Virus record (IMG/VR): IMGVR_UViG_3300021387_000452
DNA from: a virus
Lineage: Duplodnaviria > Caudoviricetes
DNA: 64,000 bases
Strand: one strand, 5' to 3'
Both the position numbers and the translations under genes were made by a program. A model generated the notes under the pieces. The model was not told the origin of the DNA, ran no database searches, and was given only the letters and a program-made list of their open reading frames with translations. Below are positions 1 to 35,279 of this stretch, one piece after another (the stretch's first letter is position 1; each line of letters begins with the position of its first letter).

Positions 1-778
1 AAAAGCTTTCCCAGTACTTTACTGTTCTTTGGTAGTCTTCATAGTCTTTTGGAGTTCCCCAACAAAAGTACTTATCAACATTAAAAATCTTTGCTGATAG
101 TCCTAGCTTTAGAATGTAGTTGATCACTTCATCGACATAGAATTCGTTATTTATTCGCTTATTATCAGCTATCATATCTTCGGCAGCTTTAACAAAATCA
201 GATCCTCGCTTAAACCAGAATACTGCAGTTACAGCTGGGTCCTTCTCAGGATTATCTGATATAGCTTTCTTTACAGAAGCTGATAATATGTTGTCTTTAT
301 CATCAATCTTCATCCAACCATACGCATTTGGATTATCGCATACTGAGTCATTATTTGTAAATGTAAACACTATACAATCGCATGACTTCTTCAACTCTTC
401 AAACTTTTTAACATCAATGTTCATTCCACAGTCACATGGGCCAATAAGAAGTTCTTCATCTGAATTTATGTAATCTTTTGCGCATAAGCAAGTTGAAGCC
501 TGACCGTCTGTTAACTTATCAAGTGTGATAAACTTAACTCCCTTCCAATATTGCTTAATTGTGTCTTCAACTCCCTGAGATTTATGGAAATCTCTATCGA
601 TAAAGATCATAGTGTTGCTGTCATTATCAGCACCATATAGATTATTTGCAGCGCATACTACCATAGGTAGTTCTTTATTAGACTTTCTATCATATGTTGG
701 AAGAAGTGGCTTTGGGACTTTATAACCTGATTCTGAAAATCTACTGCCCTCTCCGGCCATTGGGATAAGAATGTTCAT
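1..778 (-). CDS. Sugar-phosphate nucleotidyltransferase (NTP_transferase/GT-A fold), runs off the window edge
   Basis: Manual translation from ATG at 778: MNILIPMAGEGSRFSESGYKVPKPLLP; ATGA overlap with the upstream paralog; absent from the ORF track. Confidence 0.8.
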   Translation of the reverse strand, partial: MNILIPMAGEGSRFSESGYKVPKPLLPTYDRKSNKELPMVVCAANNLYGADNDSNTMIFIDRDFHKSQGVEDTIKQYWKGVKFITLDKLTDGQASTCLCAKDYINSDEELLIGPCDCGMNIDVKKFEELKKSCDCIVFTFTNNDSVCDNPNAYGWMKIDDKDNILSASVKKAISDNPEKDPAVTAVFWFKRGSDFVKAAEDMIADNKRINNEFYVDEVINYILKLGLSAKIFNVDKYFCWGTPKDYEDYQRTVKYWESF

Positions 779-1560
779 CGATTAGCTCCTTTCAAAATAT
801 TCATCCACATATTAAATTCTTCTAAGTCTTCTGGAGTTCCCCATTGACAAAAAAATCTAATATTGTCTGGGCACCAAACTCTCTTATTATCTTTAACTAG
901 ATAGTTATACACGAGACTAGCATAAAACTCACCATTTAATGAATCATCTGCTTTTATAAGCTCATTTGAATAGTGATATGCAATGTCTCCTGATTTGAAG
1001 TAATATATACCAGGTGAGTGATGTGCAAGAGTCTTATCTTCTTCAAAAGAGAACTTTTCTCTAATCTCTTCTAGACACTGATTAGAGTTAATCTTACACG
1101 ACGCGTATAAGTTCTTCTTGGGAATCAGGTGCGGATGAAACCCGGTATAGCATGGTATAGAGCCATCTACATCACGTTCTAAGCACTCTTTAATAAACTC
1201 ATTAGAATTCCATAAGCAGAAAAAGTCACAGTAATTTATTATGGTTGGAAGTGATTTGTCAATCTCATCAGTTTCATATGCTCTACAAAAATCATTCACT
1301 GGCCCTAGCTTAATCCAGTCATATATTGGAACTATCTTTGTATGTTTTGCTATAAATTGAAGCTTCTGAAAATCTTTATCATTTACTAGATGCGCACTTC
1401 TACATATAAAGATAAACTCAGTAGAATCCTGATCATACATGGATACTATCCACTCGATCATGGATTTTCCAGCAACTTTAATGAATGGCTTTAAATGCTT
1501 GTAGCCAGCTTTAACAAATCTAGAGCCATACCCCGTCATCGGTATTACAACTTGAATCAT
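775..1560 (-). CDS. Sugar-phosphate nucleotidyltransferase, capsule-locus type
   Basis: VVIPMTGYGSRF...KPFI N-terminal motif, NYCD, NGEFY, WGTPEDL. Confidence 0.8.
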   Translation of the reverse strand: MIQVVIPMTGYGSRFVKAGYKHLKPFIKVAGKSMIEWIVSMYDQDSTEFIFICRSAHLVNDKDFQKLQFIAKHTKIVPIYDWIKLGPVNDFCRAYETDEIDKSLPTIINYCDFFCLWNSNEFIKECLERDVDGSIPCYTGFHPHLIPKKNLYASCKINSNQCLEEIREKFSFEEDKTLAHHSPGIYYFKSGDIAYHYSNELIKADDSLNGEFYASLVYNYLVKDNKRVWCPDNIRFFCQWGTPEDLEEFNMWMNILKGANR

Positions 1561-1562
1561 AG

Positions 1563-2507
1563 TTAGATTTCCTTCTGTCTATACTTTTCTGAATCCCAGC
1601 CTAATAAGCTATTTACATCAGATATAGATAGTGACGCACTAGTTACTATAGCATTCGCTTTCAAAACTTCTTCAATCTGTTTACATCTAAGAAATGATTT
1701 ACTTGCTATAAAATTATACCCATCATATGATATACACGTAGGTCTAACTTCACAGTCATCACTCATATGATACAGAGTCCCACCACTGTATATTACACAA
1801 TCCGGAGTTTTTCTTAAGTTATCCATTGGTGCATCTGTTATTATGACATAGCAAATTTCATTAAACTTCTCATATAAATAGTTTTGAACATAGCTGATCT
1901 TATTACATATCAGTCTATAACCGGTTACTTTTTCACAGAATACAATAACATCATCTATAATCTTAAACACTTCATTAAGATCATTAGAATGAACTATTAA
2001 TCCGTGATTATCTAGGAAGATGATTTTCTTATCACCAGTGATATGATCAGACAATTCAAGCCCTGGTCTATAATAATCAATAAACTCAGCTGTAGACTCA
2101 TACTTATCAATTAGCTTTTGCTTGCATGAATCTAAAGCTTGTATTACTAGCGATGGATGAAGATGAACTGTGTACTTAAGTGTTTTAGCATGAAAGAATG
2201 TTTCAAGCGATGGCTGAGAACCTAATATTGTAGATGACTCCAAGAATTCTTTCTCAGAATCATATACTCTGTTATTGTTATCATTAAATGATTTAATTTC
2301 TGAAAGATCAACTACTGAGATATTCTTATCAGGTTCTACATCAAACAATGTACATCCAGATGATTTAATGAATAGCTCATCTCCATGCTTTATGGAGATA
2401 TTCCCACCACCAGCCTGAACTAGATCTGGGCGTACTCCGTAATACTTACAAATACAGCTAAGTAAATCTCTAGTACTAGATGTCTGTGCAAATTGCGTCA
2501 ATCTCAT
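1563..2507 (-). CDS. Class II aldolase/adducin-family protein (RhaD-like)
   Basis: QAGGGNISIK, PSLET, VHLHP, NHGL metal-binding motifs. Confidence 0.8.
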   Translation of the reverse strand: MRLTQFAQTSSTRDLLSCICKYYGVRPDLVQAGGGNISIKHGDELFIKSSGCTLFDVEPDKNISVVDLSEIKSFNDNNNRVYDSEKEFLESSTILGSQPSLETFFHAKTLKYTVHLHPSLVIQALDSCKQKLIDKYESTAEFIDYYRPGLELSDHITGDKKIIFLDNHGLIVHSNDLNEVFKIIDDVIVFCEKVTGYRLICNKISYVQNYLYEKFNEICYVIITDAPMDNLRKTPDCVIYSGGTLYHMSDDCEVRPTCISYDGYNFIASKSFLRCKQIEEVLKANAIVTSASLSISDVNSLLGWDSEKYRQKEI

Positions 2508-3033
2508 TAATCACCTCACTTAAATACTTTTCTTTTAATTCTGGCTGACCCTGAAGTTCTGGAGATACGAAACAGATCTTATAGCCAAGACTATGAATCT
2601 CATCTGCAATTTCTTTTGTGAGAGGATTTTTTGTAAACGTGTCAACCCAAACCCAGTTACATTTTCCAGCCATTGCACGTACAGTATCTAAACCCTCAAA
2701 CTCAGAAAATCTTATAGCTATATTATGCTCACCATCAGATGATAGCTTATAAATCATTGGGAACGAGCAATCTAAAAAGAAGTAGTTCTTTATGTTGTAC
2801 TTATGAATAAGTTCTAGACATCGGTGCTCAAGTCTTTCTTCTTTAATGTCAAGAATAAGAGTGCCATGGTTATAATTTGATAGCCACTCTTCAAAATCAA
2901 CTCCATCACTATATGCTTCATGCTGTAGAATGAGCCTATCACCAATAGATCTAATGTCTATCTCAGCTCCATAATTAGTTGGCACGTTCTTTAGACAAAG
3001 AACGCAATTAATTCTGTGAGCAATTATTTCCAT
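2476..3033 (-). CDS. Glycerophosphodiester phosphodiesterase/PI-PLC-like protein
   Basis: MEIIAHRIN...GAEIDIR...HE...DIKE; start moved to 3033 (SD GGAG at ~3040). Confidence 0.7.
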   Translation of the reverse strand: MEIIAHRINCVLCLKNVPTNYGAEIDIRSIGDRLILQHEAYSDGVDFEEWLSNYNHGTLILDIKEERLEHRCLELIHKYNIKNYFFLDCSFPMIYKLSSDGEHNIAIRFSEFEGLDTVRAMAGKCNWVWVDTFTKNPLTKEIADEIHSLGYKICFVSPELQGQPELKEKYLSEVINEIDAICTDI

Positions 3034-3440
3034 TGAAATCTCCTTTTGAGAAGAAAAATCTTTACTTAATTTATATACAACAAAACTCACTACGAGTAAA
3101 TGTACTTGCATAGTGAGTTGCTATTTCTACTTATGTAGTTTTATGTAATCTTCTGGATGTTGATACATCTCAAAGAATTCAATTCTACCTTTATCAGTTA
3201 AAATATCATAATCCCATGTGCCGTCATCATTGTAGAAATATAGCTTAGTAAGATCTCCAGAAAGTATCATGCAGAATTCTCTAATCATAAGAAGCTTTGC
3301 GCTTAACTTCGCTTCTGATAAGCTTCTAAATCTTCCGTAAATTTCTGCGTCTCCATTCTCATCTATACGATAAAGAAAATAGTCATTTCTATCAACCATA
3401 TCACTCACCTACAGCAAGATTTTACTAAGCCAATAATTTA

Positions 3441-6399: not shown

Positions 6400-7137
6400 T
6401 TCTAAATACTCCTCGCTTTACAAGCGCTAAATCACTAATAAATATATACAAATAAAGAGCATGGATTTTAATACCAACACTCTTTAGATATGTGCTGCAT
6501 TAGTCTTCTCTACCAAGTTCTATACAGAACTGTGGTACTCCATTCTTATCGCTAAATAAAATTCTTGGAGTGTCTATCTTATTATTAACTTCTACATTTG
6601 TACAACGTGACTCAATAATATAATCTAAGAACTGCTTCCATGTAAATCCAGTGCCATAAGCATATTCCCATTTATTATAACCATTTTTCCACCATGGGGC
6701 AAATAATCTTCGCCAGCCACTGAAATAGTCTCTACACCCTAAAGATTCTGCTTCAGTAAAAGCATCTGTTGTAATCTTGCTGACTCTCTCGCATACTGTC
6801 ACAAACATACCTTCATTCTCAGTAGAGATATAGTTTGGTAATAAGACTAATAATCCTCGAACTCGATCAAGAATTGACTTCTCTAATTTATCTGCAATAG
6901 TCTGCTTATCCATGATAAACTCCTAAGTAAATAAATCTTCAGGCAACTGTGCTGGATTGTGAAGCATCTCACAAATAACTTCACCGTTAAATGAAATTGA
7001 CCAGTCAAACTCGCTTGCATCTTTACATCGTTCCCAATATGAAGTTAATTCCATTGCCTCTTCTAATGAGGAATACAACCACTTTGTTGGGATTCTACTT
7101 CCTGGAACATATAATGATAACGTGTACATATGCATAG

Positions 7138-7668
7138 CTAATCCCATAAGTCAAGATAATGATCAGCCAAAATTTGGAACGCTTCTTTTCGCATAACTAA
7201 TGCAATATTACGTTTATTTTCTTTATCTTCAGAAGATAGCTTCTCATATTCATCTGAATAAATATAATCAGTAGCAACAAAAGCATCTCGAACTTTTCGA
7301 AGCATATCTTTCCATGTATCGAATTCAATATTTGCAGGGTGTGATATACCTTTATCAATCCACAATGTAAGTGCAGGAATAGCTCTATTCATTAATTCAG
7401 TTCCGAAGTTCCATGCTAAATCTCTATCAGCACCGCAGTTTAGATCTTTATCAACTTCTTTACAATTTACCCAAGCTACTATATCACTGCAGTCCTTCTT
7501 AATAGCAGTCGGCGTTTCATCAGTGCTTGGGTAATACCAAAACTCATCATCATAGTTATAATTGAGTCTTACAATCTTTCCAGATTTAAGTTTAACCAAA
7601 CACTCTACAATGTCACCACCCCAAACGCCTTCAGTAATAGGAACCCATTTCATATTACATTCCTCCAA
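7138..7668 (-). CDS. Hypothetical protein with DUF551-like N-terminus
   Basis: MKWVPI...IVAW pattern. Confidence 0.4.
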   Translation of the reverse strand: MEECNMKWVPITEGVWGGDIVECLVKLKSGKIVRLNYNYDDEFWYYPSTDETPTAIKKDCSDIVAWVNCKEVDKDLNCGADRDLAWNFGTELMNRAIPALTLWIDKGISHPANIEFDTWKDMLRKVRDAFVATDYIYSDEYEKLSSEDKENKRNIALVMRKEAFQILADHYLDLWD

Positions 7669-7948
7669 ATTAAATAAATGACCAACCGCACCACACGCTG
7701 TTCTCTAACTCGAAAGATGAAACAAGTTTTGGAATAGACATAATAAGCTCAAACACTCTTATGTCTATTATAATAGACTCGTCTTTAAATGAGTCTTTTG
7801 ATAAAGCTGATTCGTATTCTAATCTGCATGTTGCAAGCTCACTAATAGCTTCAGCCATATCTTTACACTCACGAGTCTCAAGATCAAGAAATGAATCATC
7901 GCTATAATGAGCAGTAACTACAATAAGATACCCAGATGTCTTCATAGT

Positions 7949-8374
7949 TTACTCCAAGCTGTCAAGATATAAAATTCTCTTTGATACTTTTTCCTGTAGT
8001 GTGTCAAGTTCATTTAAACCTACAAGATCACGATACTCTTTTCCACAGCACATACCATCAGTAAGCAAGCAATCAAACAAATCTCTAACATGTGTTATTG
8101 CAGCATAAATTGCTGTCAAAGCATCTTGTTCTTGGTAAACATCATCATTTTCTTCAATATAAGCCCAATGTATTACAAGATCTTTTCGTAAACCATTAAC
8201 GCCTTTCGTATCTTCTGGTTTTGAGAATGACTGTGTATCTTTATGAAACAACATAACTTCATAATGTGTTTCATAGATGTTCTCATCTTCATTAACAGGA
8301 TACTTATACTGAACAACACATAATTGAGTATCTGTTTCAATATTTGGTAATGTATTTCCTTTATGCCACTTCAT
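7949..8374 (-). CDS. Hypothetical protein with DUF551-like N-terminus
   Basis: MKWHKGNTLP...VIHWAYI. Confidence 0.4.
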   Translation of the reverse strand: MKWHKGNTLPNIETDTQLCVVQYKYPVNEDENIYETHYEVMLFHKDTQSFSKPEDTKGVNGLRKDLVIHWAYIEENDDVYQEQDALTAIYAAITHVRDLFDCLLTDGMCCGKEYRDLVGLNELDTLQEKVSKRILYLDSLE

Positions 8375-8913
8375 AATTATCTACCTGTTAATTTATGAAA
8401 GAGATTATTATTATACTCTTCGCCAGCATAACCAGTATCTTTTGAAACTGCCTGATTTGCTAATTCCTTTGAATCTATGCTTGACTCATCATCGCTATTT
8501 AATAACTCTTGCAGTTTAGACTCAGCAAAAGCAAGCAGATCTTCAGGTGTATCTTCAATGTCTACGCCATTTAGAGACTCACACATAGATCTATGTGTAA
8601 ATACTATAAGCTTATTCCACTCATCATTATAGAGACAATCTGTCTTACTATCTATGCATTCTAGACCTTCTAGATGAGGTTCATTATTCTCACTATACCA
8701 ATAAAACTTATCATTCTTACATTTGAATTTAGTGTAATGACCATCATGAATCCAGCAGTCAATAGCAATATCACTAAATGATGGATTTTTCTTAATCAAA
8801 TGTCTAATCTGACGTGAAACGACTACGTTAGAGCACGAGACATCATCAAGATCTCGTAGATTAATTTTCTGCTTGGCATTTGTATTTTCACTCATGATAA
8901 TATCTCCACACTT

Positions 8914-9291
8914 TTAATCGTTAATAAAAATCCAATCGTTACCATTTGGAGTAATGACATCTTCAGCGCCATCATACTCATCAATGCGATATTGATTCCC
9001 ACTGATTTCTTCAATGGCTAAATTTGCACAAGCTCCGCTAGCTTCTTTACCAAGAGCTTCTACAACAGCGATCAAGTCTGGGTGATGTCTTTTGCCATCA
9101 AATAAATCAGAAATGCCATAGCAAAGATACTCATACTTTAATGAAACATCTGAGCTAAGATCATTAGTCTTAATCATCTTAATACGCTCGCGTAATGCTT
9201 CATCCTTGCAATGCTCTTCCAGCCAGTCAACAGCTTTAAGTGAAAGAGAAAAACCGCCATAGCAGTTATTGTAAACGACCTTGTGCCCCAT
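8914..9291 (-). CDS. Phage hypothetical protein
   Basis: KVVYNNCYGGFSLS...RHHPDLIAVVEALG...YRIDEYDGAE; start moved downstream of the cassette. Confidence 0.65.
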   Translation of the reverse strand: MGHKVVYNNCYGGFSLSLKAVDWLEEHCKDEALRERIKMIKTNDLSSDVSLKYEYLCYGISDLFDGKRHHPDLIAVVEALGKEASGACANLAIEEISGNQYRIDEYDGAEDVITPNGNDWIFIND

Positions 9292-9310
9292 AATAATCTC
9301 CGTGAAATTA

Positions 9311-9401
9311 TCGGGTAGCCATTCCACCCGATTTCTAAAGATACTTATAAACCAGACTGTACTTTGAGTAAACAAAAATCACCGCACAGTGCGGTGATTT
9401 T
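9311..9401 (-). promoter_or_regulatory. Terminator-promoter-5' hairpin cassette, copy 1
   Basis: AAAATCACCG/CGGTGATTTT hairpin; -35 TTTACT, 17 bp, -10 TATAAG; leader TCGGGTGG-AATGG-CTACCCGA. Confidence 0.85.
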
Positions 9402-9408
9402 GCTTTTA

Positions 9409-10659
9409 TTAAAATATGAGTTTTCGTAGCTCAGATTCTTTTATAGTTTCACAGCCTGAAATTCCTTTGTCTAACCTCCAGCAGTCAATGACTGCATGTG
9501 TAAGTCTTAAACTTCTAGCTGAAACATTCTGACCCTGAATTGTAGCAACCCTGCCATAATAGTCTGGGTTAAGCTTAACAATCCCGCTATCATCTATAAT
9601 TGTAGCATCTTCTTTAACAAAGTCTGAGACATTTGAACAAACCGCTATTGGGTGAGTAACTGTAGACCCATCTTGCCTTTCAAGCATAACAGAAAAAACG
9701 AACCCAACAACCATGTTTTGATTTCGTGTATCATCTTTACCAATAACATAATCAGTAACAAATGCATCAAGATCTTTTGTTAAAGTATCAGCCGTTGATC
9801 TTTTTACCTTTACACAGTCAATAGTGCGTGATGATGTAGCATGATACACGGCATTTTTATTTTTGAGTACAACGCCCTCTTTATCGTTTGCTATAAGTCT
9901 GTCGAAAAAGTCTCTTTTAGCTTCTGGGTACTTATCTGTATTTTCAACAACTGGATTAATATCGCAACAAAATCCTGAATTTTTCAACATACTAGCAAGC
10001 TTAATTGCATGTGGATGACGTTCTATCCATGGTTTATTTATAAGATTATCTGAATCTAGAAGGCAGTCAAATATGATGAATTTAAGTGGGTTATCTTTTT
10101 GTATGCGTTTAGAATCTGTAGGATTAAGATTTAATAAAGCTGCTGTAGACTGAAGCTGAGTTAAACATCTTGTGTTAGTCTCTATCTCTGGATTTGTACT
10201 AATAACTTCACAGTCAAGCACAAAGTTATATGGGTAGCTAAACCCATTATCAGTAGTGTATATAGTATCAGAATAATCTTGTGGCAAATAATCTTCTACT
10301 GAATTGTTACGACTATAAAAATGGAATTGCTTTTCGCTTGCATCATATAAAATGAGCATACGACAGCCATCAATCTTCTCTTCTGCAATCCAGTCTTGAG
10401 ATTCCCAGACCATCTCTTGTTGCTCTTGTTTAAGATCTTTTATGCGTCTACATAATTGAGGGCACTCAATAGAAAGCATAAATGAAAGTGACCATGGGAT
10501 ATTGTCTCTAGAACCGTACTTCTCAGTAATGAAGTACTCACGTAATGCTTTTACAAGATCATCTTTCATCAATTTACGACCAGCTGGAACGACTGTAATT
10601 CCAAGTTGATCACATTGATTTTGCAAGTAATCTATACGACGCGCGCATTCAATAGCCAT
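9409..10659 (-). CDS. ATP-dependent DNA ligase
   Basis: Motif I EEKIDGCR, LDCEV, FIIFD, EGVVLK, KVK. Confidence 0.9.
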   Translation of the reverse strand: MAIECARRIDYLQNQCDQLGITVVPAGRKLMKDDLVKALREYFITEKYGSRDNIPWSLSFMLSIECPQLCRRIKDLKQEQQEMVWESQDWIAEEKIDGCRMLILYDASEKQFHFYSRNNSVEDYLPQDYSDTIYTTDNGFSYPYNFVLDCEVISTNPEIETNTRCLTQLQSTAALLNLNPTDSKRIQKDNPLKFIIFDCLLDSDNLINKPWIERHPHAIKLASMLKNSGFCCDINPVVENTDKYPEAKRDFFDRLIANDKEGVVLKNKNAVYHATSSRTIDCVKVKRSTADTLTKDLDAFVTDYVIGKDDTRNQNMVVGFVFSVMLERQDGSTVTHPIAVCSNVSDFVKEDATIIDDSGIVKLNPDYYGRVATIQGQNVSARSLRLTHAVIDCWRLDKGISGCETIKESELRKLIF

Positions 10660-10671
10660 AGTATAAGCTCC

Positions 10672-11328
10672 TTATTTAATGTTTTCATAAAGAAGTGTAA
10701 GATGATTTTTCTTAATAAGTCCATCTATTCCTTTACACCTGCAAGCCATATTAGCAAATTGCACAGTGTTAAATGGATGTGCTATGATATGTTTTCCTGT
10801 TCTAGTAGGAATGACTGCTACTATTTTCTTCTTAGGCTCGCAGTCTTCAACCATGTCTATATAATACTTTGTAAGCTGATCAACTGTACATACACCATTA
10901 ACACTATACCAATCTGCGTCTTCTTTATCAACATCAATAATCCAAAGCTGTTCTGAGCGTTCTACATATTTTGCAGCGCATGAATCGAATATAGAATATG
11001 GCTTATCAAAGTTATCTTGCGCAATACGATTAGCATATTCAGCCATAGAGTTTAGTGTAACTTTGTGCCAAGATTTTGCATTTACTGAAGTATAAGCTCG
11101 CATGTTAAGAGTATCACAAAGTAACTTAATTTCATTCTCATACTTATCAAAGTCTTCCATTGTTCTGATGTAATATGTTTTGAATTTATGATTGCCTGCT
11201 ATAATACGAGCATTATCTTTAGCACGACCTATAATCTCTATTGTGTAAAATAAATCAGTAAGTGAATCAAATTGATTACACCACTGAGACTGAATAAATT
11301 CTTTAATAAGTTTGAAGTTATCAGTCAT
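10672..11328 (-). CDS. Possible AEP/primase-polymerase-like protein
   Basis: WIIDVD (hhhDhD) and PTRTGKHII (GxH) motifs. Confidence 0.4.
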   Translation of the reverse strand: MTDNFKLIKEFIQSQWCNQFDSLTDLFYTIEIIGRAKDNARIIAGNHKFKTYYIRTMEDFDKYENEIKLLCDTLNMRAYTSVNAKSWHKVTLNSMAEYANRIAQDNFDKPYSIFDSCAAKYVERSEQLWIIDVDKEDADWYSVNGVCTVDQLTKYYIDMVEDCEPKKKIVAVIPTRTGKHIIAHPFNTVQFANMACRCKGIDGLIKKNHLTLLYENIK

Positions 11329-14354: not shown

Positions 14355-15038
14355 TTATTCGAGAAATTTAAAGTGACGTTCATATACATGAAGACTCGCT
14401 GCGTTCCAAATAATATCGCCTTTAGTCACATTTAAATTATACTGATTAAGTTCATCAACCATTTTTGATTGAACATACTGCGCCCATAATATATCATTGC
14501 AAAATCCGTATACAGCATCGTTCGATCTCATAAACACAGTGTAATCAAGCTTATATTTATTATCATTAATTTCATTCAAAAATACTTGCGCTGCATAAGT
14601 ACACATAAAATCGTGCATACCATGGTAAGTGCAATCGTATTGCATAGATGGTCTATTGTAAATCATGCATGCTTCACGCGTATGATTATCATATAGCAAT
14701 CTATCTACACAATTGTAGAATTGCCTATAATTCTCATCTGAGAATATACACCATCCATAGTTTGAATTTATCTTGCCATCTCTATCTGCGCAAGCCTGCC
14801 AAATCTTCGGTACATCTCCAGGAATGTCTTTTACATACAGAGATTGTGATTCATACCATTCTATTTCACGTTTTGCATAATCATAATTAGGCTCACGAAT
14901 AATCCAATCTTTATCTACTAAAAAGTGAGCATTTTGAATTTCAACTGTCTTGCCAAACTTTCCAGTTCTAAAGACGCCTTCATTGTAAAGTCTTTTTAGT
15001 TCGTCTCTAATGTCAGATGTTGTTGGAATGCTTATCAT
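14355..15038 (-). CDS. dCMP hydroxymethylase (T4 gp42-like)
   Basis: EIEWYESQSLYVKDIPG, INSNYGW, DFMCT, MRSNDAVYGFCND with the dCMP-specifying Asp, SLHVYERHF. Confidence 0.88.
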   Translation of the reverse strand: MISIPTTSDIRDELKRLYNEGVFRTGKFGKTVEIQNAHFLVDKDWIIREPNYDYAKREIEWYESQSLYVKDIPGDVPKIWQACADRDGKINSNYGWCIFSDENYRQFYNCVDRLLYDNHTREACMIYNRPSMQYDCTYHGMHDFMCTYAAQVFLNEINDNKYKLDYTVFMRSNDAVYGFCNDILWAQYVQSKMVDELNQYNLNVTKGDIIWNAASLHVYERHFKFLE

Positions 15039-15105
15039 TTAACTTCCCCTATAAAATTATAGCCTAGTAGAAATAATCTCTACTAGGCTTAGTATACACT
15101 GTAGA

Positions 15106-16407
15106 TTATAAGCAGCTTAACTGCTTTGTTGTCTGTGTAATATTATCGAATAGAATTGCTCCACTATCATGAACTCGCTGAACTTCTTCTGTTAAACATT
15201 TCAGCGCTTCAGATATTACAAACTGAGCTGTACGGACTGGAACATTCTGACCAATCTTTGGAAATACTCTCTTAATATCACCGTACATCTCAAAGTCATA
15301 AGGCATTCCCATAGATGTTAGCCATTCTCTTATTGTATAGAGACGATCTTCTTTGTAATGAATTGCGCATGGTATTGTTTTGAAAATGCAAGCTGGCAAT
15401 ATATTATTCTTCATGTAGAGCGGAGACATCGTGTAAAAGCTTTTCCCATCAGCTAACTTGCCTTTAATGTGATTAATACTGTGAATGAATCTCTTCTTTT
15501 GATCTTCATCAACATCACTACAATTCTCAGCAAATGAAATCAGGTCATCAAGCTTATTATTATTTATTACATCACATAGCAACGTAGGTGATGAAATCTT
15601 CTCTCTCCAAGAGCTACCATACTGAGACTTAATGTATTTCATAATAATAATGTTTGTGAACGACTGCTCAAGCTGAACATTCATTGGATCACTGTCGTTC
15701 TTTGGAATCCTGCTTAATAGCTCTTCTACTGAGATATGTTTGTTCTCAAAGCCAAGTTGTGGAACACCATCATGAGCAATTTCATCACTAAAGAATAAAA
15801 CAAATGTTCTAGGTCGCTTTTGACAATTGTCATGAAGCTGTGTATCAGTTCTATAATATGCAACTCTATAATTAAACTCATCAGCGATAGACTCTAATCT
15901 TGCTCTAACTGATTTACTTAGAGGGCTTGAATTTGTGAGTCTTGGCGCATTTTCAAAAATATAAATCTTTGGCTTTATTGTCCCAAGAGTAAACTTAGTT
16001 AAAAAGACCATGTTTGAATTTCTAGAATCAAGTGTCTCTTCACTTGCTCTTGTAGCAGCTGACAATCCAGCACATACTGGAACTGCTATCACAAGATCCA
16101 TATTTGAATAATCTGGATGGGCTGACTCACTACCATTTCTTAAAAGTTTTACATTAGCATCTAAATCTCCCTGAAATGGAGTCCGGTCAAATTGATAATA
16201 TGGCACCATTCTATCGTGCTTTTCAAGATACTTGATAAGATTATACTCATTACCAGCGTCAATAAGTACCCCGTTCTTATCATATTTTGGAGCATCAAAT
16301 CCAGGATAAGAAATGATAAATTCAGCAGGATGTCCAGTTGCATTTTCAGCAGAAAAATATTCGCCACCAGTAAGTGGCTGAAGTGCGCACCATTTAATAT
16401 TGTTCAC
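15106..16407 (-). CDS. C5-cytosine methyltransferase-like protein with atypical motif I
   Basis: PVCAGLS (IV), FENAP (VI), QKRPRTF (VIII), TIRE..MGMP (IX), GQNVPV (X); QPLTGG in place of FxGxGG. Confidence 0.75.
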   Translation of the reverse strand: MNNIKWCALQPLTGGEYFSAENATGHPAEFIISYPGFDAPKYDKNGVLIDAGNEYNLIKYLEKHDRMVPYYQFDRTPFQGDLDANVKLLRNGSESAHPDYSNMDLVIAVPVCAGLSAATRASEETLDSRNSNMVFLTKFTLGTIKPKIYIFENAPRLTNSSPLSKSVRARLESIADEFNYRVAYYRTDTQLHDNCQKRPRTFVLFFSDEIAHDGVPQLGFENKHISVEELLSRIPKNDSDPMNVQLEQSFTNIIIMKYIKSQYGSSWREKISSPTLLCDVINNNKLDDLISFAENCSDVDEDQKKRFIHSINHIKGKLADGKSFYTMSPLYMKNNILPACIFKTIPCAIHYKEDRLYTIREWLTSMGMPYDFEMYGDIKRVFPKIGQNVPVRTAQFVISEALKCLTEEVQRVHDSGAILFDNITQTTKQLSCL

Positions 16408-16418
16408 AGTAAATCTCC

Positions 16419-17003
16419 CTATGTATGTTCAACAAAGTGTATAACATCTTTATAGATATCATCCTTGCCCCTAAAATTAGTACCATCATTCACAAATACT
16501 TTCTTTTTATTCTCTATAATTGATTTATCAAAGATGTCATTAAATGCTTGTAGCTCATCTTCTATATCATTCTTTTTAGATGAATAGGATAAACCATCAT
16601 CATTCTTTACAAGTAAATCTGAGCTATTGCTTGTGAGTAGAATGAAGTATAAATCTCTACTGAATATGAATGTTCTAAGCTGACCAACTTCAAGCTTATG
16701 AATTAAACTTTCAACAAGCTCCCTTGATTCGTGTCTATATTTTGGACCATAAACATACTCACCATAAATAGATCTATTATGAATCACTGCATTAATAGAG
16801 TTATCATAATAGCCAGCAAGAGTATCGTGAATAAGCCCATCATAATAAAACTCAAAAAGATTATCTGAAGTAGGAATTCCAGCATGTAGCACTCTTACAT
16901 CTCTGTAGTAATCTTTCAGTTTATTGATTAGTGTATCTTTTCCACAGTTATCAGGACCCTCAATGATGATGATTTTTGGAGCAGGCTTTGTAGAATCAAA
17001 CAT
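16419..17003 (-). CDS. dNMP/thymidylate-kinase-like P-loop kinase
   Basis: IIIEGPDNCGKDT; NRSIYGEYVYG. Confidence 0.8.
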   Translation of the reverse strand: MFDSTKPAPKIIIIEGPDNCGKDTLINKLKDYYRDVRVLHAGIPTSDNLFEFYYDGLIHDTLAGYYDNSINAVIHNRSIYGEYVYGPKYRHESRELVESLIHKLEVGQLRTFIFSRDLYFILLTSNSSDLLVKNDDGLSYSSKKNDIEDELQAFNDIFDKSIIENKKKVFVNDGTNFRGKDDIYKDVIHFVEHT

Positions 17004-17084
17004 AGTTTCACCTATAAAAGTTAAGAGATTCAAATCACTTATTTTTATATATACATTATGTAACGTGTCTATATAAATAAAAAT

Positions 17085-17108
17085 CCCCTAGATCTTTCGA
17101 TCTAGGGG
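17085..17108 (-). terminator. Rho-independent terminator
   Basis: CCCCTAGA/TCTAGGGG stem followed by a T-run on the minus strand. Confidence 0.7.
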
Positions 17109-17749
17109 CTTCATCCTAATCAAACATCATCTCTCTAAATATTGATCTACAATCATAAATAGTCATTTCAAATAAAACATCTTCAACCAAATTTTCAAAT
17201 GCATCTTCATCAATTGAATAAATCTCATCTTTATAGATATGACTATCATCTATATATTTTATACATTCACTAATCTGACATTGTAACGTATTTAATAATT
17301 CATTGTAATTTTCTTCAATATCATCTAGCTTACTATCATCCATTTGTCTAGTTGATCTACATCCGCACATCTGAGCCGCATGATCAGCTAGTCGAATTCC
17401 CAAGCAAGTACCAAGTCTAGAAAAGAATGGTAAAGAGTTCAACATTGATCGTAGTCGATCATCGATCTGTTGAGCATTCATTATAGTTACCTTTCACACA
17501 CCATAAGTTATAGCCAAGCTATTATTCAAGATCTATAGAAGATTTGATATCTGACTTACTCCTGTCTATGAATTCATTATTGAGGCTCATGTGAGAACGT
17601 ATTATATCGCTCATTATGTTCAAGCAAGCTTCCTTTGGCCAATCATATTTGCGCATATCTTCAATAATGCTTAAAAAGAATTTATAGCTACTATTATAAC
17701 GATCTCTTATGCTGTCTATAACATTTAATGTGCTCATTTCTATAAAGCC

Positions 17750-18283
17750 TCACTTTGTTCCAGAGCTGCCAAATCCACCAGTGCCACGAACTGAATCTGG
17801 CTTAAGCTTTTCAAAGTCTTCTGATAAAACTTCTTGAAATGCAGTATGAAGTACTGGTAAATGCATAAATTGAACAAGCTTATCGCCAGTCTTAATTTGA
17901 ACTGGCTCATCACCTGTGTTAATTACATTAAGATGAATCTCCCCAGTGTAATCATGGTCAACTAAACACGCACCAATAATAAGTCCCTTATTTGCTGCAA
18001 CGCCAGACTTATTCACAGCAAGTAAACATGTATCTGTATCGCCAATAATAACACGAATGCCTGACGGAACATTTATTCTACCATGTGGAGCAATTGTGAT
18101 TGTCATGCTATCTCTGTTTGGCGATATACTACACTCATAAAAGCTCTTATTAGTATTCTTAGACTCAAGATCAGTTAAAAATGAGCTATCATATTCTGGC
18201 ACAAAGAAATCTACAGCATCGCCAGTCCCGTATGCTCTATTTGGGCTTTTGACATCACGCGTCTTATTAAAAAGAATGTTCAT
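17750..18283 (-). CDS. dut: Trimeric dUTPase (possibly also dCTPase)
   Basis: NKSGVA, VDHDYTGEI, GDKLVQ, RGTGGFGSSG. Confidence 0.9.
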   Translation of the reverse strand: MNILFNKTRDVKSPNRAYGTGDAVDFFVPEYDSSFLTDLESKNTNKSFYECSISPNRDSMTITIAPHGRINVPSGIRVIIGDTDTCLLAVNKSGVAANKGLIIGACLVDHDYTGEIHLNVINTGDEPVQIKTGDKLVQFMHLPVLHTAFQEVLSEDFEKLKPDSVRGTGGFGSSGTK

Positions 18284-18837: not shown

Positions 18838-19404
18838 TTAATCAGTTACAGCATACTTATTTGAAATAACTACTCGTGGGTAGATGTATTTCCCACAAAA
18901 CTGTGGCGTGTAAATCACTCTATGAACATTAAATCTTGTGATATTCCTATAATTAAGAACTGTAATCGGCACAGCCATTAAGCCTTCATAATCTATTGGA
19001 ATATCTTTAACACTATCAATGTTGATAATTCCAACGTGGTTGTCTAAGAATGAATACTTAAATTCATTTCCGCGATATGTAGCTTCAAATGAGTTATATG
19101 AGCAATTAGCTGGGCGCTCAGTTGTAAATGTAGCTATAAACTTAATAGAGCCATCAATGAAAATCTTGCCGGTCTTAATAAGATCAAACATTTCAGATCG
19201 TAAAGCAAACTCAATTGGAAGCTTAGCTGACACTTTCTTATTTAGCTTTGCATCTGAAATGAAATCAGCCAATTTGGCTTCATCTTCATCTGATTGAGTT
19301 GCAAGTTTAACATTAGGCTCAATCATCATAGAAATAATGTGATCAAGTAGTTCCTTTTTAGCTGTAGCTTCAATATCCATACTAACTCTCCTATGTAGCG
19401 CCAT
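18838..19404 (-). CDS. Divergent EcoRI-type adenine MTase paralog lacking the NPPF motif
   Basis: INIDSVKDIPIDYEGLMAVPIT...YPRVVI matches the C-terminus of 33630..34532. Confidence 0.55.
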   Translation of the reverse strand: MALHRRVSMDIEATAKKELLDHIISMMIEPNVKLATQSDEDEAKLADFISDAKLNKKVSAKLPIEFALRSEMFDLIKTGKIFIDGSIKFIATFTTERPANCSYNSFEATYRGNEFKYSFLDNHVGIINIDSVKDIPIDYEGLMAVPITVLNYRNITRFNVHRVIYTPQFCGKYIYPRVVISNKYAVTD

Positions 19405-26180: not shown

Positions 26181-26879
26181 CTAGTAATCTACTCTTTCGC
26201 CATTGTTAAATATATGCAACTTATTTGGCTGCACTGAAATCCAATTTTCATCTGACAGCTTAGTAGTTGAGATATGAACTCCATTATTTGTAATTAGATA
26301 ATAAAGGCTCTGCGCATTCATATAAACATACATATTATTAGTAAAGCTATCGGTGAAGATAAGATTCACTTTACCAAGATGAGACATTTCTCTAATGGTG
26401 TTCTCTATTACTGAATAGATAAAGTACATCATTTCTGACTGATTCTCTATCCATGCATGCTCATATAATGAATTGACAGCCTCAACTATAGACATCAAAA
26501 TTCTTTCACTGTCTGTTTCACCGCGCTGTAATTCAAACAAAGCATCAGTATAATAAGTATCTTCGATATAGCCATTATGAATAAGAGCCCACTCTACTCC
26601 GTGAATGTCTTTCTTTATAAATGGATGACAGTTATCAATTGTAGCATTTCCATGAGTCTTAAATCTAATGTGGCACAGAGCTAACTTCGAAGTAAAGTCT
26701 TTTTTACGCAGATCGGAAATGCAACTCATTGCTGAGTTTGGATTAACATAAAAATCATCTTTATCCTGAAGATAATAGCCAAACCCATCCTGATGAACTC
26801 TAGAATGAAGCCAAAATTCATTAGTGTATTTATTAAGCCTAACTGGAACTGACCCACAGAATCCATAAATCTCACACAT
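26181..26879 (-). CDS. Class II glutamine amidotransferase (Ntn)
   Basis: Starts MCEIYG; DGFG, HIRFKTHG, NCHPF, HNG, GETDSE. Confidence 0.9.
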   Translation of the reverse strand: MCEIYGFCGSVPVRLNKYTNEFWLHSRVHQDGFGYYLQDKDDFYVNPNSAMSCISDLRKKDFTSKLALCHIRFKTHGNATIDNCHPFIKKDIHGVEWALIHNGYIEDTYYTDALFELQRGETDSERILMSIVEAVNSLYEHAWIENQSEMMYFIYSVIENTIREMSHLGKVNLIFTDSFTNNMYVYMNAQSLYYLITNNGVHISTTKLSDENWISVQPNKLHIFNNGERVDY

Positions 26880-26926
26880 AATAACAATCTCCAAGTAAAA
26901 AGTCTAGAACCAAACTAGACTAATAG

Positions 26927-27913
26927 CTATATACATGACTTACAATGTGCTGACAACTTTCTAGATCTAAACTTTATAATTCTATCTAAGAAAAAGTTTA
27001 TGCAATCAGAACTCAAATCATATCTGAACAGAATTTGAAATGCGTCTGACTCTATAAGATTTTTAATGTAACTAGTACTCTGTAAATGAGAGGCTATATC
27101 ATACACAATGTAAGTCTGCAGAGTTGCCCAATTCAATATTGTTGTGAGATCTAAAGTACCCTCAAGCTGTCTAGATTCAAATCTCATACTATCACACATA
27201 AGTGAAACTTCACTAAAATCACAATATCTGGCGCTTAACTTCTGATACTTTTCACTTATTACTGGCTGTGTTGATTTACAATATGTATTTCGTCTTCGAC
27301 TAGAAGGTACTAGTGGATCAAGCGCTATCTCTTCCATGTAGCTATAATCGTGTAAAATGTGTCTGACATCGCTCTTATAAAGACCATCATAGCTAAACCC
27401 TATATGTATGTGTGTTCCACATGAATCATTTACTCTGCCATGAAGATGATTCTCTATGCATGATAAAACATTTTTAAGTAGAAGAACATCATACTCATTA
27501 AACAAATTAAGCTTTGATGAAGATAGCTCATAACCAAACTCATTATCTGACCCGTTATACTTTATGCTACTATCTTTGCCTAAGATCCATTGGCGACCAT
27601 CATTATGACTATATTTCCCAGTGTAAAAATACTTATCGCGTAAAAGTCTAGTCATCGCCATATTAAAGTCACATAAGGACTGAAGATTAGCATTACCCAC
27701 AAACTCCAGCTCAATACCAAAAGTAACCTCTGGTAACTTTAGTGATGATAGCTTATATGCCTCGATCGACGACAGTAGACTTTTATAGAGAGGTTGAGCA
27801 ATCTTTGAATCAATTTGAGAATTCTTTAGCTGTAGTATAGCATGACTTGGCGTTTCGTTCTTAAGAGTAATGCCAAAGAGAGCTAACTTTTTGGCATGTT
27901 CTTCATCTATCAT
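26927..27913 (-). CDS. Putative amidoligase (COOH-NH2 ligase)
   Basis: FGIELEF, DSSI, ELSS, NDSCGTHIHIG, ESRQLEGTLD. Confidence 0.85.
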   Translation of the reverse strand: MIDEEHAKKLALFGITLKNETPSHAILQLKNSQIDSKIAQPLYKSLLSSIEAYKLSSLKLPEVTFGIELEFVGNANLQSLCDFNMAMTRLLRDKYFYTGKYSHNDGRQWILGKDSSIKYNGSDNEFGYELSSSKLNLFNEYDVLLLKNVLSCIENHLHGRVNDSCGTHIHIGFSYDGLYKSDVRHILHDYSYMEEIALDPLVPSSRRRNTYCKSTQPVISEKYQKLSARYCDFSEVSLMCDSMRFESRQLEGTLDLTTILNWATLQTYIVYDIASHLQSTSYIKNLIESDAFQILFRYDLSSDCINFFLDRIIKFRSRKLSAHCKSCI

Positions 27914-31332: not shown

Positions 31333-31620
31333 TTAATCTCTTGGCGGATCAGGTAACGGCATCCAATGAGTTACTATTACGTGAAACCATTTCTCAAGAT
31401 CACCATTGTCGTCTTCTTGACTTGCCCATCTCCCTTTACGTCGTTCAGCGACCATTGGAATAAGTCTAAGCCTTGGGTTCTTCCAATCAACTACTGAGAC
31501 TAACACCCAATCATACTCATGAGATGGAAGTCTATCTTTAACACTAATCCATTTATCTTTCTTAAACTTAAGCGCTAGTTCCATATAAATCTCTCTTTCT
31601 ATCACGCCAAGATAAGGCAT
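31333..31620 (-). CDS. DUF551 family protein
   Basis: WISVKDRLP...VTHWMPLPDPP. Confidence 0.8.
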   Translation of the reverse strand: MPYLGVIEREIYMELALKFKKDKWISVKDRLPSHEYDWVLVSVVDWKNPRLRLIPMVAERRKGRWASQEDDNGDLEKWFHVIVTHWMPLPDPPRD

Positions 31621-32239
31621 AATGATGAATTGACACTGTGTTATCTGTTATTTCTATTTCACCAGACTTTACATTCTTTGGGCAAAAATACTCAGTTGGA
31701 TAAATTATATAGCCGAGTTGATTATTCACAGCTAGCACGTCTAAGTCATTGCTAAACATATCTCTAAAGAAAGAGTTGAATATCCATGACTTACCATAGC
31801 GCTTACCAGCTCTTGAAAGTCTTTCTCTAAACTCAAGTATGCTTTTAAGTAAGAGATCGTCTTCTTTATTACAACACCAAATGCAACCAGCGCATACAGT
31901 GTTCTCAGGATTTATTCTACTTAAAAATGGAGAATCTAAAAACTCATCCGGCAAATGCTTTATGAATTCAACATCGCAATCTACATAAATTCCGCCGTGC
32001 TGATTAAGAACATGAAGTCTTAATATGTCAGAGCAAAACGCAAATTTCTTCTGACTATACCAAAGATCATAATACTTCTTTTCTGTATCATCAAGATGAA
32101 GCTGACTGATATTGGATTCATTCCACTCAATGATTTGATAGTCACTCATGTATTTATGGAATGACTCGATGCATTTATTTGCTAGCTCAGTTTTATGATT
32201 TCCAACCCAGATATAATGTAAGATTTTAGGTATCATCAT
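31568..32239 (-). CDS. Glycosyltransferase family 32 (OCH1-like, DxD)
   Basis: IPKILHYIWVG, SDILRL, GGIYVDCDV, IHHYALSW. Confidence 0.88.
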   Translation of the reverse strand: MMIPKILHYIWVGNHKTELANKCIESFHKYMSDYQIIEWNESNISQLHLDDTEKKYYDLWYSQKKFAFCSDILRLHVLNQHGGIYVDCDVEFIKHLPDEFLDSPFLSRINPENTVCAGCIWCCNKEDDLLLKSILEFRERLSRAGKRYGKSWIFNSFFRDMFSNDLDVLAVNNQLGYIIYPTEYFCPKNVKSGEIEITDNTVSIHHYALSWRDRKRDLYGTSA

Positions 32240-32932: not shown

Positions 32933-33547
32933 CTATTCAATGAATGATTTATTCACAAATAAGTTATACAAGTTACACCCTATGAAGTTAAACAGAATCA
33001 CTACTAGAAGCCTAGAAGTAAGACCCCATATATTATCATAGAATACTGAACTAGCTCCATAATAGAATGAATCTAGAACACAATGAAAACCACCAATAGC
33101 TAAGAATGAGAATACACATGCTATGTGTAATAAATAGCCTGATCTTAGATTATCAAATTTGGCGGCTAATGTTAATAAAAATCCAGTTATCAGAGACATC
33201 ATAATGCAAAGCAAATAGTCTGATGATAAATGGCTCAGCACTATCTTATCAGCATTGCTTACTATAGATTGATTTAGAAATCTTGATATAAGCCCAAATA
33301 AGAAAGCAGCTATCACATTAAGTATAAGAACTAAAATCAGTCTACGAAAGTCAATTGAGTCAGATAGAAATCCAGACTTATTAGTAAAAAGATTCAGATT
33401 AAGTACGCTACATGACAAAAAGCATATAGACGCTAATGCTGATCCAATCATAGAGTCATGACTTAGTAGATATAAGCATCCACCAATACCGACTACTATA
33501 CCAGCAAGTAATGACCTAGATATGACATGATCAACTGGATCTATCAT
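32933..33547 (-). CDS. Formate/nitrite transporter (FNT)-family membrane protein
   Basis: About 6 TM segments; LAGIVVGIG, LNLFT, GFHCVLD, NFIG. Confidence 0.65.
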   Translation of the reverse strand: MIDPVDHVISRSLLAGIVVGIGGCLYLLSHDSMIGSALASICFLSCSVLNLNLFTNKSGFLSDSIDFRRLILVLILNVIAAFLFGLISRFLNQSIVSNADKIVLSHLSSDYLLCIMMSLITGFLLTLAAKFDNLRSGYLLHIACVFSFLAIGGFHCVLDSFYYGASSVFYDNIWGLTSRLLVVILFNFIGCNLYNLFVNKSFIE

Positions 33548-33629: not shown

Positions 33630-34532
33630 CTAATCATCTACTCTCTTTAATATAATGCGAACATATGTTGGTTTGTTTGGTGCTAGACACGGGCCTCTTG
33701 TTTTCCAAGGTGGCTTATCAAGATTCACCAAATCACCAGTAATACGACCAAGCTCAAAATCTAACTCATCATAATTGTTAAATACACCAATAATCTTAAA
33801 CTTACTTGGATCATGCTTGGTCAAATATGTAATAGGGACACCGATATAACCATCATAATCAAACGGAATATCAGCTACCTTATTACAATTTATCGCATCA
33901 AAATTCACATACTTCTGATGAATGTTTGGGTCATACTGAACAGATAGATCCAAACTGTAAAGTCTATTAACATCTAAATTTGTGAATGTTGTAATTGAAG
34001 CCACCTTTACATACGAGACATTATCTCTCATATACACCTTAGACTTTGGGTCATTAGCATATTCCATAGGAACTTCAAACTCACAAGTTTTATTTGCAAT
34101 GTAGCCAAGTCTAATGTGATCTTTAATAAGCATAGAAGATACTTGCTTATAACAGATACAATTATTAGTTCCCCAAATAATAAACTTCTTACTAAGCTTA
34201 TCTAGCAACTCAAGAAATTGTCTGAATAGGCTAAACGGTGGATTAGTTACAACAATATCACAATGGCTGTAATTATCTATTGCTACTTCACTTAAACAAT
34301 CAACTCCGTCTTGAAGAGATGTATAAACCAAATCTTCAATTAGCCCATTGGCTTTTAACTCTGAAAAGTATTTGACGAAAGCTGAATCTTCAGTGTCGCA
34401 TGGACAATAGATTGTTTTGCCTTTGAACTGATCAAGATAATGATCGAGCTCAAACTTAACATCTGTATATAGAGTATAAAACTCATCCTTCTTGGATGAG
34501 CGTGCTACAGATAATCGTTGTCTTGTAAACAT
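33630..34532 (-). CDS. Adenine-specific DNA methyltransferase, EcoRI family
   Basis: KKDEFYT, IYCPCD, DIVVTNPPFSLFR, DIPFDYDGYIGVPIT. Confidence 0.88.
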   Translation of the reverse strand: MFTRQRLSVARSSKKDEFYTLYTDVKFELDHYLDQFKGKTIYCPCDTEDSAFVKYFSELKANGLIEDLVYTSLQDGVDCLSEVAIDNYSHCDIVVTNPPFSLFRQFLELLDKLSKKFIIWGTNNCICYKQVSSMLIKDHIRLGYIANKTCEFEVPMEYANDPKSKVYMRDNVSYVKVASITTFTNLDVNRLYSLDLSVQYDPNIHQKYVNFDAINCNKVADIPFDYDGYIGVPITYLTKHDPSKFKIIGVFNNYDELDFELGRITGDLVNLDKPPWKTRGPCLAPNKPTYVRIILKRVDD

Positions 34533-34562
34533 ATCTCTAAACAGATAAACAGGTTAAACAAG

Positions 34563-34635
34563 TGCCCCAAGAAAGACTCGAACTTCCGACCGCCGCATTA
34601 CAGGTGCGATGCTCTACCAACTGAGCTATTAGGGC
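34563..34635 (-). tRNA. tRNA-Thr(TGT), C33 variant
   Basis: Cloverleaf; stem TCGCA/TGCGG, loop CCTGTAA. Confidence 0.9.
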
Positions 34636-34638
34636 AAA

Positions 34639-34727
34639 CGAAGAGAGTAGGATTCGAACCTACGGTACGGTGTAACCCGTACGACTGAATAGCAATCAGT
34701 TGCCTTCAACCACTCGGCCATCTCTTC
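34639..34727 (-). tRNA. tRNA-Ser(GCT)
   Basis: Long variable arm; ACTGA-TTGCTAT-TCAGT. Confidence 0.92.
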
Positions 34728-34731
34728 ACGA

Positions 34732-34815
34732 TGTCAGCAGAGAGACTCGAACTCTCAAGCCTTTCGGCGGCAGCTTCTAAGACTGCTGCGTTTACCCAAG
34801 TTTCGCCATGCTGAC
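34732..34815 (-). tRNA. tRNA-Leu(TAG)
   Basis: GCAGT-CTTAGAA-GCTGC; long variable arm. Confidence 0.92.
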
Positions 34816-34820
34816 ATAAA

Positions 34821-34907
34821 TGGGCGTGGAAGGACTCGAACCTTCTTCTCCGAATGCATCTCTGCATTCCTCGCGAGAGGTGTTTTACCAAGATAAACTA
34901 CACGTCC
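34821..34907 (-). ncRNA. tRNA-like RNA with non-canonical anticodon arm
   Basis: Acceptor, D and T arms present; centre is CCTC-TCGC-GAGG plus AATGCA-GAGA-TGCATT. Confidence 0.7.
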
Positions 34908-34909
34908 TA

Positions 34910-34981
34910 TTGTGAGTATTGGATTCGAACCAATTCTATGAGTGTATGAGGCTCATGTGCTAACCATTACACCAACTCACA
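34910..34981 (-). tRNA. tRNA-Met/Ile2(CAT)
   Basis: Loop CTCATAC; C31-A39 mismatch. Confidence 0.8.
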
Positions 34982-34988
34982 TTATAAA

Positions 34989-35089: not shown

Positions 35090-35093
35090 TAAG

Positions 35094-35165: not shown

Positions 35166-35279
35166 ATAAAAGACGGAGGTGTTATTTAGATAGCAGTTCT
35201 ATTTCAACTACAGGGCACACACCTGAAACCTCTTTGTTGGTTAGCCTCGCCAACATTGCCCGATTTGAACGGGACTTGA

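Follow-up and report, generated by a model that had tools for sequence, protein, structure and literature searches.

Hypermodifications of phage DNA drive an arms race with restriction and CRISPR systems and are a source of enzymes for epigenetic sequencing. The hydroxymethylcytosine (hmC) pathway of phage T4 includes gp42, gp1, gp56 and the alpha- and beta-glucosyltransferases. In phage pathways that combine a C5-methyltransferase, TET and a glycosyltransferase, hmC is made after replication, by the methylase and then TET; in some of the clades described, motifs IX and X diverge and methylase activity was not detected (PMC8256090). CmoX, a phage DNA cytosine C5-carboxymethyltransferase (PDB 8YF3), holds carboxy-S-adenosylmethionine (carboxy-SAM) with an Arg at the M.HhaI Asn304 position and needs the neighbouring CmoA (PMC12783734). 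In vitro, canonical C5-methylases can replace the hmC hydroxyl with a thiol (PMC7176277). The locus analysed here lies in IMG/VR virus record IMGVR_UViG_3300021387_000452 (Duplodnaviria; Caudoviricetes), within a stretch of 64,000 nucleotides referred to as the window. Positions 15106–16407 encode a protein of the C5-cytosine-methyltransferase fold with altered motifs, termed here the methylase-like protein. Its gene stands between those of a deoxycytidine monophosphate (dCMP) hydroxymethylase of the T4 gp42 type and a probable hydroxymethyl-dCMP (hm-dCMP) kinase. The family to which it belongs is tied, by genome and by neighbourhood, to dCMP-modifying homologs of thymidylate synthase, and often to glycosylation genes. 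This association fits a role in a cytosine hypermodification pathway.

Likeness to the described systems is partial in each case. Like T4, the phage has a gp42-type enzyme, along with a nucleotide kinase, an enzyme of the dUTPase family and genes related to sugars. Of 50,697 cultured phage records, 976 contain a gene resembling gp42, but T4 and about 970 other cultured gp42-bearing phages have no methylase-like gene. The TET pathways likewise cluster a gene of the C5-methyltransferase family with DNA glycosylation genes, leading to hypermodified cytosine. They differ in timing: here a gp42-type enzyme is predicted to make hmC before replication, and a methylase step would be redundant. No TET/JBP dioxygenase was matched by Pfam among about 60 open reading frames (ORFs) scanned in the window (64 kb of a genome of about 220 kb); this result, together with pre-replicative hmC, ruled out a TET-coupled pathway. 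CmoX is also a phage homolog of C5-methyltransferases, repurposed to install a handle for hypermodification. The position of its Arg is occupied by Gln387 in the methylase-like protein, and the scanned window ORFs include no CmoA-like protein; on both counts a carboxymethyltransferase of the CmoX type was rejected. The PF00145 enzymes M.HaeIII and M.HhaI share the whole-chain fold, the Pro-x-Cys nucleophile, the ENx Glu, QxRxR and the layout of motifs IX and X. They carry FxGxGG and PPCQxFS, whereas the methylase-like protein has QPLTGG, PVC(A/S)GLS, GQNVP, an 18-residue hairpin and a mostly helical recognition domain.

Fold, motifs and distribution of the methylase-like family

The methylase-like protein matches PF00145 with an E value of 2.8e-15 (57 bits against a gathering score of 22). 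The match starts at profile position 57, so that motifs I–III go unrecognized, and the score against NCBIfam TIGR00675 (dcm), 38.8 bits, falls below the cut-off of 100.65. An AlphaFold model built on 83 homologs reached a predicted local distance difference test score (pLDDT) of 94. Aligned to known structures with VIA-align (residues 1–410), it gave Z scores of 25.2 with M.HaeIII (1DCT), 24.9 with CmoX, 24.8 with a prophage methylase, about 24 with DNMT1, 23.6 with M.HhaI (1FJX) and about 20–21 with Dnmt2. The root mean square deviation from M.HaeIII and M.HhaI is approximately 3.1–3.3 Å over 283–297 residues. In the model, an extra strand and the hairpin precede motif II as insertions, and helices make up most of the recognition domain.

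The catalytic motifs are readily located. Motif IV reads PVCAGLS and contains Cys112 (P110-V-C112), with Ala or Ser in place of the Gln that normally follows the Cys. Motif VI is ENAP (residues 152–155, with Glu152), motif VIII is QKRPRTF (residues 196–202; Q196-x-R198-x-R200), and motif IX is kept. Motif I is QPLTGG (residues 10–15) in place of FxGxGG; the register in which Phe becomes Gln and Gly becomes Leu comes from a manual alignment anchored on the Gly-Gly pair, as hhalign did not align this motif convincingly. Motif X is GQNVP (residues 386–390) in place of GN(A/S)VP, and both HMMER and hhalign set Gln387 on Asn304 of M.HhaI. Glu54 aligns with the Glu of the canonical EID motif II, which binds the cofactor ribose (hhalign against a canonical phage C5-methylase family; an alignment, not a ligand-bound structure).

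Twelve residues are invariant in the 83 homologs, which are 43–90% identical: L12, G14, G15, N53, E54, C112, E152, R198, R200, Q387, V389 and P390. An exhaustive profile search collected 336 sequence clusters at an E value of 1e-30 or better; among the best 147 cluster representatives, PLxGG is present in at least 124, xQNVP in about 100 and FxGxGG in none. Because the variant motifs are invariant or nearly so in the 83 homologs and persist family-wide, QPLTGG/GQNVP reads as a fixed family signature and not as decay. The cofactor pocket is, by the same alignments, remodelled, since the aromatic residue and the first Gly of FxGxG are replaced throughout the family.

The family looks distinct and phage-only. 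Among the 50,697 cultured phage records, only Pseudoalteromonas phage XG4 and five cyanophages of the S-TIM5 type have full-length members. Two narrow peptide patterns, scanned against one genome for each of 185,579 prokaryote species, returned just five loci; all lie on contigs of metagenome-assembled genomes (MAGs), in the phage gene neighbourhoods already seen for the family, and none in the context of a cellular restriction-modification system. The few matches in genome collections come from MAG scaffolds of rumen and gut origin. Literature searches turned up no paper describing the PLxGG/QNVP family. In three long proteins, P0248 (contig L139, 1462 amino acids), P0223 (768) and P0270 (557), the family domain is N-terminal and is followed by several hundred residues; no second Pfam domain was detected in them, so that the fusions gave no functional hint.

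These results bear on a first-pass annotation of the sequence. Its motif reading, with catalytic Cys, ENxP and RxR kept and QPLTGG replacing FxGxGG, agrees with the translation. Structure prediction, which it had named as a check on the cofactor pocket, returned a two-domain C5-methyltransferase fold (pLDDT 94, Z 23–25), and the atypical methylase does belong to a family of its own, apparently phage-only and with a fixed signature. The suggestion that an atypical motif I signals lost SAM binding was not supported: the motif II Glu54 is invariant and the motif I Gly-Gly is retained. Variation at motif X, moreover, occurs in ordinary phage methylases as well (GMSVPP in a control family).

The gene block and its links to dCMP-modifying and sugar genes

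The window is AT-rich (approximately 34–35% GC), and nearly all of its genes are on the minus strand. The features of the block, and the separate thymidylate synthase gene, are as follows.

14355–15038, minus: dCMP hydroxymethylase of the T4 gp42 type as predicted from its residues, 227 amino acids; matches PDB 1B49/1B5E
15061–15089, minus: 13-bp stem-loop with a T-rich tail between the methylase-like and hydroxymethylase genes; terminator-like, consensus scan only
15106–16407, minus: C5-cytosine-methyltransferase-fold protein of the 'PLxGG / QNVP' phage family (P0001), 433 amino acids, GTG start; PF00145
16419–17033, minus: P-loop nucleoside-monophosphate kinase, probable hm-dCMP kinase; phrog_761 match and model fold
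17085–17108, minus: 10-bp GC-rich stem-loop with a T tail, upstream of the kinase gene; consensus scan only
17116–17481, minus: conserved 121-amino-acid protein, syntenic with the block; homologs at the same position in contigs L001, L003, L005, L009, L011, L012, L014 and L019; no Pfam or PHROG match
17750–18283, minus: trimeric dUTPase homolog with an N-terminal extension of about 60 amino acids; PF00692
18296–18811, minus: conserved 171-amino-acid protein, syntenic in related contigs; no Pfam or PHROG family match
18838–19404, minus: 188-amino-acid protein with a short EcoRI-methylase-like stretch (PF13651, E 2.7e-8, profile positions 250–297 only), syntenic and kept in related contigs
39750–40373, minus: ThyX flavin-dependent thymidylate synthase, a separate dTMP supply; PF02511, E 3.5e-43

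In order of transcription, the block runs from the EcoRI-methylase-like 188-amino-acid gene through the 171-amino-acid gene, the dUTPase homolog and small genes, including that of the 121-amino-acid protein, to the kinase, the methylase-like gene, a stem-loop and the hydroxymethylase. The methylase-like gene starts 11 nucleotides past the kinase stop codon. No cultured phage is close to this region at the DNA level (megablast, 50,697 phage records); metagenomic contigs of 221–255 kb carry near-identical gene blocks. The order of kinase, methylase-like gene and hydroxymethylase is kept even in contigs whose methylase-like protein is just 45–55% identical. Because of this synteny, and because the variant motifs are invariant or nearly so in the 83 homologs, the arrangement is more than chance. 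A large virulent phage would be in keeping with the wider content of the window, which includes a cluster of 20 tRNAs and genes for a DNA ligase, for RtcB and for an RNA ligase.

The hydroxymethylase matches the structures of T4 dCMP hydroxymethylase (1B49/1B5E) with an E value of 6e-59 over residues 6–225 (phmmer), and is about 46% identical to T4 gp42 (tblastn). An Asp at the position of Escherichia coli ThyA N177 sets cytosine specificity, and the diagnostic residues used here are those of PMC13326640. The protein has the catalytic Cys (in DFMCT), Asp at the N177 position (FCND), an acidic residue, Asp, at the L143 position (HDFMC) and Asp at the D169 position (RSND). Since it carries all four gp42 signs, it is by its residues a gp42-type enzyme whose predicted product is hm-dCMP, not 5-hydroxy-dCMP. 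The 5-hydroxy-dCMP synthases of RB69 (gp48) and DLP3 are marked by Asn at the D169 position (PMC13326640); with D169 kept, identity with the RB69 gp48 type was ruled out. Related megaphage contigs (L063/L076, in G005 at 143020–144139; L069/L075, in G009; L071; L074) encode a second, shorter thymidylate-synthase-like paralog of about 197–224 amino acids, which adjoins the main one in G005 and G009. The paralogs of L071 and L074 have Asn at the D169 position (RSNN), the sign of a 5-hydroxy-dCMP synthase.

The kinase gene matches phrog_761, 'thymidylate kinase', with an E value of 1e-13. By sequence it has no significant match among solved structures and was placed by fold search only: its model (pLDDT 91) has the thymidylate/deoxynucleoside-kinase fold, and the best Foldseek matches are YorR, thymidylate kinases and deoxycytidine kinase (dCK). 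It is probably an hm-dCMP kinase, and homologs indicate that its true start is probably the ATG at 17003. The dUTPase homolog matches PF00692 (E 8.6e-14) and dUTPases of the PDB (E 1e-14), and scores under the NCBIfam dut cut-off; a role as dCTPase is possible. The nearest cultured relatives of both kinase and dUTPase homolog are the Prevotella Lak megaphages.

Linkage to dCMP-modifying enzymes extends well beyond the window. A divergent thymidylate-synthase homolog is encoded in 13 of 14 IMG/VR records that carry the family, the lone exception being 38% complete. Asp occupies the N177 position in every homolog found in those records, and D169 is retained in most. None of 20 viral records with an ordinary phage C5-methylase has a thymidylate-synthase homolog, although these contigs are an imperfect control, from smaller phages (30–75 kb, one of 174 kb); the counts themselves are not phylogenetically independent, and the co-occurrence partly reflects shared descent. 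Some relatives, such as L012, have no hydroxymethylase at the usual spot yet encode one elsewhere. On MAG contigs from Erysipelotrichaceae, Bacteroidales and Dehalococcoidia bins (including L136–L138), the methylase-like gene adjoins a hydroxymethylase or kinase gene. In XG4 a gp42-like gene lies 4.6 kb upstream of the methylase-like gene, and in S-TIM5 a 'ThyA' with Asp at the N177 position lies 2.4 kb from it. These two phages are independent lineages that repeat the pairing with dCMP enzymes. The gene layout proposed in the first-pass annotation (kinase, C5-methyltransferase-like and gp42-like genes in succession, a dUTPase nearby and a separate ThyX) is thus confirmed at the positions listed above, on the minus strand. 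Its gp42-like call is upheld by residues of the hmC type, not the 5-hydroxycytosine type, and for the co-occurrence it had singled out, a thymidylate-synthase homolog accompanies the family in 13 of 14 records against 0 of 20 controls.

Sugar genes recur in the same neighbourhoods. The order in XG4 is kinase, hydroxymethylase, a 131-amino-acid protein, a sugar nucleotidyltransferase–kinase fusion, two glycosyltransferase-like proteins and the methylase-like gene. A putative GT-B glycosyltransferase adjoins the methylase-like gene in eight contexts, and nucleotide-sugar genes are neighbours too. Homologs of the first XG4 glycosyltransferase stand beside it in L011, L024/L134, L027, L039, L042, L055 and L140. 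L005 has two methylase-like paralogs, and between them lie the genes of an NDP-sugar epimerase and of a protein weakly similar to T4 beta-glucosyltransferase. On L140, whose contig carries HK97 capsid, TerL and portal genes, HMGL-like, CMP-sugar-synthetase-like and GT414-type genes directly precede the methylase-like gene (6730–11068). A universal glycosyltransferase partner was ruled out, the GT414-type gene being present in just one of five further records searched. The window has instead a GT32-like DXD glycosyltransferase at 31568–32239. Three genes stand at its start (2–3111): the first, truncated by the window end, is NTP_transferase-like, another is weakly similar to nucleotidyltransferases, and the third resembles class II aldolases/epimerases. 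Together with the GT32-type gene, these may form a nucleotide-sugar pathway for DNA glycosylation.

Proposed role and rival explanations

The family depends on, or is tolerated only with, a pathway by which cytosines in the phage's own DNA become blocked at C5. The reading favoured here, tentatively, is a post-replicative, Cys-dependent enzyme that acts on hmC DNA as one step of a hypermodification pathway. It is preferred because an ordinary methylase would be expected also without such a pathway and in cellular genomes. The gp42-type enzyme would make hm-dCMP, the adjacent kinase would phosphorylate it, and hmC would enter DNA in place of cytosine. The methylase-like protein would be a base-flipping enzyme, with Cys112, Glu152, Arg198 and Arg200 as the machinery for covalent attack at C6 of cytosine. 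Its target after replication would be a C5-substituted cytosine of phage DNA, either hmC or a derivative. In the most plausible chemistry, the Cys–C6 adduct would activate the 5-CH2-OH carbon for exchange; alternatively, the hydroxyl might be modified using a nucleoside-type cofactor held by Glu54. Chemistry directed at hmC is plausible because canonical C5-methylases derivatize hmC in vitro (PMC7176277). It is a more doubtful proposition that a natural enzyme of this fold replaces or decorates the hydroxymethyl group by Cys–C6 catalysis, giving an undescribed hypermodification, as the counterpart of the atypical in vitro reactions of M.HhaI and M.SssI. The first-pass annotation had proposed an enzyme repurposed to hypermodify or edit hmC. 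Linkage to dCMP-modifying and glycosylation genes fits that idea, whereas the part placing its action on hmC rather than on residual or host cytosine was not supported.

Several observations weigh against an hmC-directed role. Besides the limits of the control set and the shared descent noted above, the siphovirus-like contig L140 carries a family gene and sugar genes with no thymidylate-synthase homolog in the 21 kb seen. The GT414-type partner is not found in the 64-kb window and is not universal in the family. The recognition domain is far more variable than the core (32% versus 54–58% identity) and paralogs coexist, both of which are expected of ordinary sequence-specific methylases. To judge by the invariant motif II Glu and the retained Gly-Gly, the protein may still bind a cofactor of the adenosine type, SAM for instance, and plain methylation would fit these residues equally. 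Function, including substrate, cofactor and product, is a prediction. The recognition domain, the paralogs and the motif II Glu speak for an ordinary SAM-dependent DNA C5-methyltransferase with an unusual motif I, which would methylate cytosines that escape hmC replacement or lie in particular contexts. Such an enzyme would protect sites otherwise left open to host restriction and to cytosine-specific nucleases of the phage itself. All of the catalytic motifs are kept, the fold matches M.HaeIII and M.HhaI at Z scores of 23–25, and Glu54 coincides in alignment with the Glu that canonically binds the ribose. Apparently ordinary phage methylases likewise have another residue, Met, for the motif X Asn (GMSVPP), and other SAM-dependent DNA methylases encoded in the window indicate that SAM is in use. 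A plain methylase should, however, be useful without hmC, hence also in prophages and cellular restriction-modification systems, and the family is phage-only and linked to dCMP enzymes. No member seen retains the aromatic residue or the first Gly of FxGxG, and complete replacement by hmC would leave no substrate. Both this enzyme and its protective role are judged unlikely, though likelier than the other rivals.

The strict linkage to C5 blocking and the absence from cellular genomes would also suit an enzyme harmful to ordinary DNA: an anti-host activity attacking only unmodified host cytosine, by trapping, deamination or marking, and affordable only where the phage's own DNA is blocked at C5. 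C5-methylases without SAM promote C-to-U deamination. The logic is comparable to that of the cytosine-specific nucleases and Alc of T4, and the gene lies within a nucleotide-metabolism block of early type. The recurrent adjacency of glycosyltransferase and nucleotide-sugar genes points instead to the phage's own DNA, and the conserved cofactor-site residues N53, E54, G14 and G15 would be unneeded for mere trapping; this explanation is improbable. Least credible is a role away from DNA cytosine, either as a Dnmt2-like RNA methylase for phage tRNAs or as a non-catalytic DNA-binding partner of glycosyltransferases. The window does encode 20 tRNAs, RtcB and an RNA ligase, and Dnmt2 is among the fold matches. 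Dnmt2 nevertheless scores below the DNA methylases and has no counterpart of the family's large recognition domain; the invariant catalytic residues argue against a non-catalytic function; and it is dCMP enzymes, rather than tRNA genes, to which the family is linked.

Other window features and significance for phage biology

The 20 tRNA genes lie at 34562–38065 on the minus strand, and local GC rises to about 0.41 because of the cluster. Three ARAGORN calls have odd anticodon loops, with 'anticodons' of two or four bases (34821–34907, 35964–36036 and 37721–37800), and a tRNA-Ile(TAT) gene is present. At 56893–58113 and 60251–61453 are the genes of RtcB and of an RNA ligase carrying a PHA02142 OB domain; they are likely a tRNA-repair pair in a tRNA-rich phage. 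A full EcoRI-like N6-adenine methylase (E 1e-69) is encoded at 33630–34532, and an N6/N4 methylase gene at 40348–41118 overlaps the end of the ThyX gene. An Amidoligase_2 gene (26927–27913) adjoins that of a class-II glutamine amidotransferase-like protein (26181–26894), a pair kept in L003 and L005. Next to an SLT lytic transglycosylase, positions 32933–33547 encode a 204-amino-acid protein that matches formate/nitrite transporters at a score under the cut-off (28.9 versus 34.6 bits).

The family presents a paradox. A widespread, phage-only branch of the methylases is locked to pre-replicative hmC synthesis, in which the target carbon is already occupied. The question is directly testable, as the cultured phages XG4 and S-TIM5 carry family members. 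If the enzyme is a plain methylase, these phages would be only partly substituted and would possess a two-layer protection scheme. If it acts on hmC, it would open a new enzymatic way of making modified cytosines and might serve as a tool for labelling hmC specifically.

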